From Candidatus Absconditabacterales bacterium (GTDB lineage: Bacteria; Patescibacteriota; Gracilibacteria; Absconditabacterales; Absconditicoccaceae): 24,931 bases of DNA. The stretch spans positions 1 through 24,931 of the forward strand of contig CALCME010000033.1 in NCBI GenBank assembly GCA_937965925.1. The letters run 5' to 3'. This document shows positions 3,841 through 21,258 of the stretch, one piece after another. The notes under the pieces were generated by a model, which was not told the DNA's origin, ran no database searches, and was given only the letters and a program-made list of their open reading frames with translations. Each line of letters opens with the position of its first letter. Position 1 is the stretch's first letter. Position numbers and translations under genes: made by a program.

Positions 3841-6156
3841 CTAAAACAATGATCATTGAACTACATCGACAACTGTTGATGTAGTTTTTTTGTTGATTGA
3901 TTTATTTTCTCATCACTCAGTTTTCCCTAGAAGATCATCAAGAGTAAACGAAGCCATAGATAAAAAGGTATCCAATCTGATAACGGGAACTCAAAGATTC
4001 AAAGCTTTCTCAAGTTTACTTCCTGCTTTCTCCCCACACAAAAGATAATCTGTTTTAGAACTTACTGAAGACGATGTAACTCATCATTGTTTCTCTATGA
4101 TTTGAGATAATTGATCCCTCGTTACTCATTCGAACTGTCACGTAATAACAAACCTTTTTCAGTTGAACGTACTGAATCAAGAAGAAAAAGAGAGTGGCTT
4201 TGACTGACTAATAGCATCACGATAAAAATCAATATCATGAGTTTTCAAAAACTCCTCGAATCAATGTTCTTTTTGACCTTTCGCTCGTTCTCACAACGAA
4301 CGAATCGTCTGATCACCTAGTCAGAATATGCTTGTTAACGTTTCTTCATCCATAAAATAGTCAAGAAGAGATCTCGAATAGACAGAATCATGTTCAAGAA
4401 GAGCTACTCGTTCTTTTGAAAGATCTTGGGAGATCTTCTTCCCTATATGTGGAATTCAAAATCAATGTATCCATCTCCATAATGGTTTAATACGTGTTGA
4501 AGAAATTCACTCATTGATAGATGCTATTTTCTTATCTCAAAATCAAGGTAGGGAACGGAGAAGTTGTGATTTATCAGAAAGATCATATAAGTCTTTCCAA
4601 CTTGAAAGTACTCATTTTTCACAGAGAGTTTCTACGACACTATCTCCAAGTCATGAGATATCAAGACAGTTTCTAGAAACAAAATGTTGAATTTTTCAGA
4701 CAATTTTTGCTGGACAGTAGGAATTTTCACACAAAAGAGCAACTTCAGACTCTTGAGGAATGAGTTTACTCATACAAGATGGACACTGGTCGAGAAGTTT
4801 TATCTTTTGTTCTTTTCATGTACGCTTCTCTGGTATTGGTCATAAGATGTACGGAATTACTTCTCCACTCCTTTGTACTCGTACTCGGTCTCATAACCTT
4901 ATATCGCGATCTCAGATATAGTCAAAATTATGTAATGTTGCTCTACGGACAATTACTCATCATAATGATACCGGATCTAACTCAGCTACAGGTGTTATAG
5001 CTCAAGTGCGTCACACCTGGTACGTAATATCTGATAGTTTAGTGGATACTTGTTTTGTTGGAAACTTATATGCTATAGCTCGTCTAGGGTGATGTTCAGT
5101 TACTCCAAGTATTTCTCTTTGATCTAATGAATTTATTTTAATAACTAAACCATCCATTTCTGAGTTTGATTGATCTAGCTCCTTTTCAATACGTGTATCC
5201 TCACACACAGATATAACCTCATCAATACGTGTACAGATACGCTTCCAAGGATACACTGGTAGTCCACATTGCTCTAATCGCTCCAATTGTTCTGAATCCT
5301 TTTTGCATCCAGGTCATACGTTAGAGAGAGTCAATATATCATATACAAAAACAATCAATCATCTCGATTTGACTACTTCAGTATCTAACTGTCTGAGAGT
5401 CCCTGCAGCAGCGTTTCTAGGATTAGCAAACAACGGATTGTCATTCTCAGCTTGCATCAAATTTAATCTCTCAAAAGAGCTTTTTGGCATAACTACCTCT
5501 CATCTTAAGCGAATTTCGTCTATTTCCGAAAAAGATTCTACAAATAACGGTAAATTTTGCAGATACGTAACGTTCTGCGTAATATCTTCACCAATTGTTC
5601 CGTCTCATCTTGTAATCGCTTGTGTATAATGCCCTGATTTATAGATAATCTCCAAAGATGATCCATCTAGTTTTGGTTCAACAAGATACTCGATAGGGAA
5701 TTCTATTCCCATATTTTCTTCTTTTCATTCTTCTTTTTCATTTTCATTCTTGTTCTTGTTCTTGTTTTCAGTGTTGTTCTGATAATGTTTCGATAATATT
5801 TTTTTAATCTGAGATCCTCGCTGACTTAAATCTCAAGCATTGTAACTATTTGAGAGCGAGATAAGAGGAACCAAATGAGAGGCTTTTTCGAATCACGAAA
5901 GCAGACGTCATCACACTTTTTTTGAAGGAGAATCTGGAAGTATATAGTCTGGGAATTTTTTCTCTAAAAACGAAAGATGTGAAAAGAGAATATCATATTC
6001 ACTGTCTGAAATTACCGGTTGAGCATGAACATAGTACAAATTATTATGATACACAAGTATATCAACTAAATTTCTCAAATGATTCTCAATATCTTCACCT
6101 ATAAAAGAAACAGATTCAATTGCTAGATACTTAGATGTAAGATCATGTATAGTCAT
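3841..6156 (-). CDS. ligA: NAD-dependent DNA ligase (771 aa from the chosen start; alternative ATGs at 6186 and 6192)
   Basis: YHNNLYY...ISDSEYD domain Ia, EPKLDG adenylation motif (K at 5671-5673), [37 protein letters not shown]...CENSYCP zinc finger, HhH region and C-terminal BRCT (FVITG...[18 protein letters not shown]); single frame to TAG 3841-3843. Confidence 0.96.
5749..5766 (-). repeat. In-frame hexamer tandem repeat (AACAAG)3 inside ligA, within a wider degenerate hexamer tract
   Basis: Encodes NKNKNK within the low-complexity stretch [24 protein letters not shown]. Confidence 0.8.
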
Positions 6157-6244
6157 AGAGATACAAGTGTGTACTAAAGAGTACATATACAATACATATC
6201 TTTTTGATCAAACAAAACAAAAAGCTAGTTAATAATAATAAAAG

Positions 6245-6271
6245 AAAACCATGTCTTGTAGACATGGTTTT
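6245..6271 (-). terminator. Intrinsic terminator-like hairpin after the TM_helix gene
   Basis: Perfect 12-bp stem AAAACCATGTCT / AGACATGGTTTT with a 3-nt loop, followed by a T-rich tract on the minus strand, 47 nt after the stop at 6318. Confidence 0.7.
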
Positions 6272-6317
6272 AGATAAGCAGTAATTAAAATCAATCTATT
6301 AAATAGGATATTTCATA

Positions 6318-18478: not shown

Positions 18479-18664
18479 AGATTACATCCAAAAAATTACT
18501 AGAAACAATTGACATAAACCGATAAATACTATTTCATTTGATTTTCATCTCATAACTCCTATATATACATATATAAACTGATACATCAAATCATTACAGG
18601 AGAATACATTCACATACATCTAATATACTGACATGTGAATCACATTTTTACAAACTGCTGGTGA

Positions 18665-19708
18665 ATGAATACACGTAAAACGTTACTAAGTAACATGAAC
18701 AGTTCTATTTTTTCCTTTTTCATTTGAGTTCTTATCATGCTATGACTTTTGGCATGATGCTCAAAACAGCTTTCTGCACCATCATGATTTTTTTGAATGG
18801 TGTATGATAAGCTCCCAAAACACTCTCTGGTTAGCATTGTTCAGAAAATTGAATCAACACCTTCTTTTTCAGCAAAACAACAGTATGAATCGACTCGAGC
18901 TATACTTCCAGAATTACTCGACTGATATGTTAATCAAGATTCAGAACTAACCTGAGACTTACATATTGAGGTACATTCTGAAGGAAATCACTATGATTCA
19001 TACTCATATAGTATAGATTTCGATATTCTAGCTAATTGATTCCTTTCAAAAAAGAAGAAACTCAACATACACTGAAATATACTCATTATACTCAAAGACA
19101 ATTCATTATATACCTATATAGAATCTCTTGAATATACACCTGTAGGAAATGAATTACAGTCAGTCCATCTTCGATGACTCTTACTCAAAAGATATAAAGA
19201 GACTCGAATACGTCGAGATATCCCTACTCAAATAGGTTATTTCGTCCCTACTCGACGAAAAGATCGTATCAATTCAAATATGATCTCATCGCATATGGTA
19301 TCTAATATGAGTAATGGTTGGTATGCTGCAACAACTGGAGAAACACTATGGTTGGAGGATACAATTACTGAACTAACTGAACATATCGATATAACACTAG
19401 TTCCAGAAAAACTCGCGATTTCACTTATACACGATAGTGAGGAGAATAAACAGAAGAAAAAATCATATATCACTGATATACACACAACAGGAGATATACA
19501 TATATCATCAACTTGAACAACTCAATTTTCATCATCACGTTCAGGATATACATCATCGTTCGATTGAAATATTCTGATCCCATCAGGTATAAAATCAACA
19601 CTTTCATTTGACTCAACATATACGCCAGTAAGGGTAAGTAAACACATACCCCTTCCAGTAAGTTTCATCGAATGATCAACAATATTAGTAGATCAAATTT
19701 CTAATTAA
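18665..19708 (+). CDS. Predicted lipoprotein of unknown function (347 aa; alternative start 18695)
   Basis: Basic N-terminus, hydrophobic core and lipobox LAG-C (TTG GCA TGA TGC, 18749-18760); open to TAA 19706-19708, includes track ORF 19280..19516. Confidence 0.8.
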
Positions 19709-21258
19709 GTGAGTGGTTCTAGCTCATATCATCAGGAGACATCCTTTACAGTTCGTCATTCATTCGTAATCTGTTCTCTAAGAGAATCAGCTTTTTCATA
19801 CTCTTTTGCTTTCTTTGCAGATTGACGTTGCTCAGCTAGTTCCTTAATAGAATCTGGAGCATCAACATTTTTTTGCGTAAGGACTTCTTTCACGAGATCT
19901 ATGAGTCATATCTTTAAGATAACTTGATCAAGAAGCAAAGCATCCATCGCATCTTCATGTGACGATCATGCGTGAGAATGAAGAAGCGTAAGAACCGAAA
20001 CCGTATCAAGATCATCAGCAAGAGATGCTTCTGCCTTTTTATACAAAGGATACGGGACATAACTATCCAGAAGCTTAATATCTTCTAACGAAACTTGTGA
20101 ACTAATTTTTTTTGCTAAATTTGATCTCGTTTTTTTTGCGCTTTCCATTGCTTCCCAAGAAAAATCAAGGAAGTTTCTATAATGTCAGGTCAGATAGAAA
20201 TATCTTAGGTCAAGAGCATCATATCACTTAGCGATAATACCTGGAATACTTAAATCATCTCATTTAGACTTACTCACCTTTCATCCATCAATATTAAGAA
20301 ATTGATTATGCATTCGTCGATTTACCCATTTTGAACATCATAAACTACATTCTGCTTGAGCAATCTCATTGGTATGATGAACCGTAACATGATCAATTCA
20401 TCACGTATGTATATCAATATGTTTTCATAGCTCTGCATTTGCCATTGCACTACATTCTATATGTCGTCAAGGAAATCATCTTAAACGTTCTTCTTCATCG
20501 GTTACTTCAGATCTTTTTACAAAAACAATATCTCCTTGGTAATCACTTTTCAATCTAAAATCGTTCTCATTAAACGTGTCGTCAACGACCATTGCTCAAC
20601 TCCTGTCTCCATCATACACCCATTCCATAGATCTTTGCTCATCTTTTGGTGATATTTTCCAGAGTGCAAAATCCGAGAGATTTCTTTTCTTACTCGAATC
20701 GATTTTTGCACCATCTCATCTATGATCAGAATTCATTCACTCAAAATCTAGCTGTGCAAGTTTTCCATAGTCTTGTACTTTGGAGGTATCCATATATACC
20801 CCATCTCATTCTATAACGTATGTGAATCACTTTTCAGTAAGTGCTTGTACCATATCGATCTGTTCTTGAATATATTCTGTAGCTCTTGTATACACATCAG
20901 GATGAGAAATCATCAACTCAGACATATACTTCTTGAAGTTGTTCTCATACATTCTCGCAACTTCCCAAACCGTCTTATTCTCTCTTCTCGCTCACTTTTC
21001 CATTTTGTCTTCTCATTGATCTCCATCATCTGTCAAGTGTCCAACATCAGTAATATTCATAACATGATTCACTGTATATCATCATACAGACCTAAGGGTT
21101 GATTTTAAGATATCTACAAACATATATGCCCTCATATTTCAGATATGAGGATCTCCGTAGACAGTAGGTCCACAACTATATAGCTTTATTTCATCTTTAG
21201 AAAGAGGAACAAAGAGTTCTTTACGACGAGTGAGGGTATTATACAAATGAATGTCCAT
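19705..21258 (-). CDS. cysS: Cysteine--tRNA ligase (517 aa)
   Basis: [70 protein letters not shown]. Confidence 0.97.

Follow-up and report, generated by a model that had tools for sequence, protein, structure and literature searches.

CGA as a very probable tryptophan codon, alongside UGA as glycine, in a Candidatus Absconditabacterales genome

Which amino acid does the codon CGA specify in a Candidatus Absconditabacterales bacterium that uses UGA for glycine? The question is raised by a 24,931-nucleotide stretch of its DNA (GenBank assembly GCA_937965925.1, contig CALCME010000033.1; hereafter the window), in which this standard arginine codon lies at conserved tryptophan positions of proteins such as cysteine–tRNA ligase (CysS) and NAD-dependent DNA ligase (LigA). 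On the basis of sequence comparisons, we consider it very likely that CGA, originally an arginine codon, now specifies tryptophan in this genome (designated G000), in which UGA specifies glycine, and CGG has almost certainly been reassigned to tryptophan as well. The observations that bear directly on the question are codon–residue statistics, the exchange of codons among relatives, the features and conservation of the transfer RNA (tRNA) with anticodon UCG, and the presence of a single tryptophanyl-tRNA synthetase gene (trpS) in one closed relative (G018).

The G000 assembly comprises 942,701 bp in 139 contigs, has a GC content of 35.2% and is 66% complete; the window is its contig C33. Coding density in the window is high under NCBI translation table 25, with 24 open reading frames (ORFs) between positions 98 and 24931 that include glmS, ligA, lgt, holA, xseA, cysS, a class-A penicillin-binding protein gene and a TGT-like gene. 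These ORFs contain 66 CGA, 8 CGG, 52 TGG and 379 TGA codons, next to 152 AGA, 77 CGT, 27 AGG and 10 CGC codons for arginine. Placement in Absconditabacterales is supported by in-frame TGA codons in cysS of all 18 same-family genomes and by the names of the homologs of the window CysS, which are Absconditabacterales, Absconditicoccaceae or SR1 at an identity of only 44-47%.

Residues opposite CGA in a standard-code relative

In the window alone, 23 CGA sites could be aligned to a distant genome of the same class that uses the standard code (G020, 800 kb of which was rebuilt), with four opposite tryptophan and two opposite arginine, a result that is significant (P = 1e-5) but thin. Owing to the small number of alignable sites, genome-wide and same-genus comparisons were used. 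As a pairwise analog of Codetta, the genome-wide check proposed in an earlier note on this DNA, 877 long ORFs of G000 were translated, writing X for every CGA and CGG, and searched against G020 with BLASTP. The G020 residue opposite each codon was then tallied across 200 G000 ORFs and evaluated with BLOSUM62-derived likelihoods.

The 333 aligned CGA codons were found opposite tryptophan in 76 cases, phenylalanine in 33, tyrosine in 25, leucine in 25 and arginine in 11. The same profile was obtained for the 306 aligned TGG codons (W 86, F 38, Y 36, L 25). Tryptophan was the best-supported assignment for CGA, exceeding tyrosine by 174 nats and arginine by 398 nats, and the 76 matches to tryptophan compare with a background of 0.63% tryptophan in the reference columns (P = 3e-92). 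At the tryptophan columns of the reference the two codons are used about equally, 76 CGA against 86 TGG, which indicates that CGA is not avoided at conserved tryptophan sites. For CGG (n = 28) tryptophan was again the best assignment, by 5.6 nats over phenylalanine and 20 over arginine. The remaining 62 codons were assigned as in table 25, including TGA as glycine, for which 2,602 aligned codons favored glycine by 2,299 nats. Repeating the tally on seven sampled family members gave CGA as tryptophan in all seven. Additionally, tryptophan would account for 0.6% of G000 codons if encoded by TGG alone and for 1.3% if CGA and CGG are included.

Exchange of codons among relatives

The orthologs of window genes in four same-genus genomes were compared, taking one best match per gene and genome. 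Window CGA codons (78 pairs) were matched by CGA in 36 pairs, TGG in 26, CGG in two and an arginine codon in one, and window TGG codons were matched by CGA in 35 pairs and TGG in 34. The codons CGT, CGC, AGA and AGG, for their part, swapped with one another and with lysine codons. A broader comparison of G000, genome-wide, with partial sequence of seven family members gave 480 CGA pairs, among them 154 with TGG, 96 with CGA, 10 with CGG and five with the four arginine codons. CGG behaved similarly (38 pairs: 11 with TGG, seven with CGA, one with CGG and none with arginine codons), and CGT was paired with arginine codons 297 times and with codons of the tryptophan set six times. This pairing pattern indicates that CGA, CGG and TGG form one synonymous family. 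Database homologs also show a split between tryptophan and arginine, an observation that is supportive only; some of these entries were translated with TGA as tryptophan, and a tryptophan in them does not always represent TGG.

Codon usage and stage of the reassignment

In G000, CGA occurs 66 times per 10,000 codons in long ORFs and 54 times in aligned columns, compared to 61 and 49 for UGG and 6.7 and 4.8 for CGG. The arginine codons AGA, CGT, AGG and CGC occur 215, 82, 43 and 15 times per 10,000, respectively. CGA usage is lower than 37 per 10,000 in all species of Shulgina and Eddy 2021 (PMC8629427). In G000 it exceeds this range and is equal to or above that of UGG, with CGG remaining rare. 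The high usage was considered as a peculiarity of G000 and this was rejected, as partial sequences of family members range from 15 to 79 per 10,000, with G131 at 79 and G006 at 59.

The path UGG to CGG to CGA would be the sole fully synonymous route between the two main tryptophan codons, and a neutral model with AT bias would predict CGA to be about as frequent as UGG and CGG to be rare. The observed usage fits this expectation, with CGG at about a tenth of either, and suggests that the reassignment of CGA is old and complete in the genus of G000.

Two further features of codon usage were observed. TGA is the commonest glycine codon in G000, with 443 per 10,000 compared to 297 for the four GGN codons combined, and its usage in family members extends from 167 to 455. 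An unannotated ORF of 156 residues in the window (2160-2630, plus strand), which has no Pfam match, contains six CGA and no TGG codons, so that every tryptophan in it would come from a reassigned codon.

Conserved tryptophan and arginine sites in window proteins

The earlier note had placed CGA at invariant tryptophans of CysS and LigA and at tryptophan sites of a DUF4389 protein, and the CysS and LigA coordinates and sequence contexts that it gave are all right. The cysS gene (19705-21258, minus strand) encodes 517 residues with four CGA, five TGG and 25 TGA codons, and its product matches Pfam PF01406 and CysS homologs in the PDB (E = 4e-79). The CGA at residue 265 (20464-20466), within GFPG-W-HIEC, is opposite tryptophan in both PDB alignments and in every one of ten relatives of the same class that use the standard code. 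Two consecutive CGA codons encode residues 314 and 315 (20314-20319), at the Y/F-W-MHN motif. Residue 315 (20314-20316) is tryptophan in all ten of these relatives and W or F in PDB homologs, and residue 314 (20317-20319) lies in a Y/F column occupied by Y, F, T or I. The fourth CGA, at residue 502 (19753-19755), is opposite Y, W, F or I in the standard-code relatives and opposite R in none.

The ligA gene (3841-6192, minus strand) encodes 783 residues with seven CGA and four TGG codons, and its product matches PF01653, PF03120, BRCT and PDB entry 2owo (E = 5e-107). The CGA at residue 371 (5080-5082), in PR-W-AIAYKFP, corresponds to tryptophan in Escherichia coli LigA (PRWAVAFKFP) and in G020, and to phenylalanine in a second PDB homolog, 1dgs. 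Another, at residue 125 (5818-5820), is opposite tryptophan in G020. The DUF4389 membrane protein (9094-9600, plus strand; PF14333) has four CGA codons, at 9427-9429, 9463-9465, 9505-9507 and 9544-9546, which were compared with seven standard-code homologs. Three of them are in tryptophan-dominant columns (W in 4/7, 6/7 and 7/7 for the first, third and fourth), and the second is in a column that is phenylalanine in 7/7.

Conversely, the earlier note had stated that invariant arginines in the window are written with CGT, CGC or AGA, and this was confirmed at every site listed. GlmS uses CGT in EYRG and CGC in HTRW, LigA uses AGA in TRGDG and CGC in GRTG, XseA uses CGT in LRGGG, Lgt uses AGA in GRLG, and the TGT-like protein uses CGT twice in TRSARHG.

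Separately from its codons, CysS carries an insertion of about 50 residues (approximately residues 214-260; 20472-20635, minus strand) just before GFPGWHIEC, which splits the Pfam tRNA-synt_1e match in two. The split match is present in G000 and most of its closest relatives (G001-G003, G005 and G006, and one of the two copies in G004) and is not seen in more distant family members.

The tRNA with anticodon UCG and the tryptophanyl-tRNA synthetase

ARAGORN identified one tRNA(UCG) gene of 73 nt in G000 (contig C1, 8750-8822, outside the window), along with tRNA-Arg(GCG), tRNA-Arg(UCU), tRNA-Trp(CCA) and tRNA-Gly(UCA). Inspection of tRNA(UCG) for tryptophan identity elements, as the earlier note had suggested, revealed A1-U72, when a 7-bp acceptor stem is assumed, the discriminator G73, and G20 in place of A20. 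These are the features that Shulgina and Eddy 2021 (PMC8629427) used to recognize tryptophan acceptors, namely G73 without A20, with A/G1:U72 as support. Orthologs in six relatives, four of the same genus and two other family genomes, keep A1-U72, G73 and G20, and they show compensatory acceptor-stem changes that argue for a functional gene. The standard-code G020 has a canonical tRNA-Arg(UCG) with G1-C72, A73 and A20. When the 73-nt sequence was compared by a BLAST-type search at the DNA level with 121 genomes of the class, it gave only two matches, by a method that is too insensitive for tRNAs; a targeted search of five relatives recovered orthologs. Neither G000, which is 66% complete, nor 0.8 Mb of partial sequence of relatives yielded a tRNA(CCG), a result that should not be read as its absence.

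The highest identity of tRNA(UCG) to other tRNAs of G000 and G020, including tRNA-Trp(CCA) and the arginine tRNAs, is 61%. Both duplication of a tryptophan tRNA and an identity switch of an arginine tRNA were considered as its origin, and at this level of identity neither is claimed. The T-loop of tRNA(UCG), TTCAAATC, is closer to that of tRNA-Trp (TTCAATTC) than to those of the arginine tRNAs (TTCGATTC and TTCGAGTC). The nucleotide beside its anticodon is G37, which is typical for codons starting with C, and tRNA-Trp(CCA) has A37.

One trpS gene was found in G000 (TIGR00233, 291 bits; contig C38, 1080-2111, outside the window). The encoded tryptophanyl-tRNA synthetase (TrpRS) resembles ordinary bacterial TrpRS, its best PDB match being the Campylobacter entry 3m5w. 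Searches with the Pfam family shared by TrpRS and tyrosyl-tRNA synthetase gave two matches each in five relatives. In G018, whose genome is closed in a single contig, the two were typed as one tyrS and one trpS.

On the basis of these features, tRNA(UCG) would read CGA by Watson-Crick pairing and, because no tRNA(CCG) was found, would probably cover CGG through wobble at U34. The loss of A20, the main determinant of arginyl-tRNA synthetase (ArgRS) outside the anticodon, may keep ArgRS off this tRNA, and with the bacterial tryptophan determinants G73 and A1-U72 it would be charged with tryptophan by the only TrpRS found. A single TrpRS therefore probably charges both tRNA-Trp(CCA) and tRNA(UCG). 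Arginine would be left to CGU and CGC, read by tRNA(GCG), and to AGA and AGG, read by tRNA(UCU).

Alternative readings of CGA

Several findings weigh against the assignment of CGA and CGG to tryptophan. Eleven of the 333 CGA codons are opposite arginine, although this is lower than the arginine background of 4.6%, and the support for CGG is thin, with 28 sites and a margin over phenylalanine of only 5.6 nats. The tRNA(UCG) keeps C35 and G36, the anticodon determinants of ArgRS, and some mischarging with arginine is thus compatible with the sequence. In E. coli, the CCA anticodon is among the major features recognized by TrpRS, and UCG has only C35 in common with it, which leaves the acceptance of tRNA(UCG) by a single TrpRS unexplained. 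A second, specialized TrpRS was searched for in G000 and its relatives and was not found, a result that is weak for G000 given its 66% completeness. For the combined picture, in which the reassignment is complete in the genus, CGA is level with or above UGG, and one TrpRS charges both the CCA and the UCG tRNA through recognition relaxed at the anticodon, we see the chances as evenly balanced. To our knowledge, such a mode of recognition has not been described for a bacterial TrpRS.

The retained C35 and G36 would also suit ambiguous decoding, in which tRNA(UCG) is mostly charged with tryptophan but measurably with arginine, so that CGA sites are occupied by mixtures of the two, and ambiguous intermediates are a recognized route to reassignment (discussed in PMC8629427). 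We nevertheless regard it as improbable. A20 is replaced by G in seven of seven orthologous tRNAs, arginine is at or below background in the CGA columns, and CGA is as common as TGG (76 against 86) at invariant tryptophan sites of catalytic cores, where frequent arginine would be costly.

It is very unlikely that CGA specifies another aromatic or hydrophobic residue such as tyrosine or phenylalanine. Phenylalanine, tyrosine and leucine are the next commonest residues opposite CGA, and one CGA of the DUF4389 protein is in an all-phenylalanine column, but the true tryptophan codon TGG has the same tail of F, Y and L. The likelihood margin of tryptophan over tyrosine and the tRNA criteria of PMC8629427 (G73 with A1-U72) also point to tryptophan. 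Finally, the reading under which CGA is still arginine, as standard annotation pipelines render it, and its matches to tryptophan are lineage-specific W-to-R substitutions or coincidences of alignment, is effectively refuted by the 398-nat difference and the excess of tryptophan opposite CGA, by the exchange of CGA with TGG rather than with CGT, CGC, AGA or AGG, and by a tRNA(UCG) that has neither A20 nor A73.

Relation to known genetic codes

The reading of CGA as tryptophan in Absconditabacteria has been known since 2021, when UGA as glycine with CGA and CGG as tryptophan was described for this lineage, also called SR1 (Shulgina and Eddy 2021, eLife 10:e71402, PMC8629427). The earlier note had correctly attributed the code to that work and lineage, in agreement with the Absconditabacterales and SR1 names of the homologs. 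A KACI preprint (10.64898/2026.04.02.715157) recovered the same code, a study in NAR 2026 (PMC13092985) used it, and later work treats it as established. The code of G000 is this published code, advanced to the point where CGA equals UGG in frequency. G000 shares with it both reassignments, the low GC content (0.35, inside the range of 0.26-0.38 in PMC8629427), AGA as main arginine codon, tRNA(GCG) for CGU and CGC, a tRNA(UCG) with G73 and without A20, and the lineage itself. Our results extend the published work only slightly, in the similar frequencies of CGA and UGG and in the single trpS.

Related captures of an arginine codon of the CGN box have been reported in other bacteria, with CGG as tryptophan in Anaerococcus and in the RFN20/Onthovivens Bacilli and CGG as glutamine in Peptacetobacter (PMC8629427). 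These lineages resemble G000 in their low GC content and in employing a tRNA without arginine identity. However, they capture only CGG, through tRNA(CCG), and keep CGA as arginine, whereas in G000 the change concerns mainly CGA, through tRNA(UCG).

NCBI table 25, for SR1 and Gracilibacteria, agrees with G000 in UGA as glycine, with a corresponding tRNA-Gly(UCA) in the genome, and differs in that CGA and CGG are very probably not arginine in G000. We know of no NCBI table among 1-6, 9-16 and 21-33 that combines UGA as glycine with CGA and CGG as tryptophan. The warning that table 25 alone would mistranslate these proteins is right, as it would place arginine at 66 CGA and eight CGG positions of tryptophan in the window. 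The stored database copy of the window CysS (P0123) has tryptophan at all 25 TGA codons and arginine at all four CGA codons, so that 29 of 517 residues are wrong, a pattern indicating translation with table 4. Under table 25, about half of the tryptophan positions in predicted G000 proteins become arginine, including the one in the catalytic-core GFPGWHIEC of CysS, and such mistranslation harms homology searches, structure prediction and expression in standard hosts. Reassignments of sense codons are rare in bacteria, and the window adds a further genome to a known case rather than a discovery. With its high CGA usage and single TrpRS, the genus is well suited to studying the acceptance of a new anticodon by a synthetase.

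Tandem NUDIX genes in the window

Apart from the genetic code, the window contains two adjacent NUDIX paralogs on the minus strand, of 224 residues (9782-10456) and 223 residues (10493-11164). Both have their best match in one single ORF of the same-genus loci (in G004, 73% and 68%), a pattern suggestive of recent duplication in tandem in G000.

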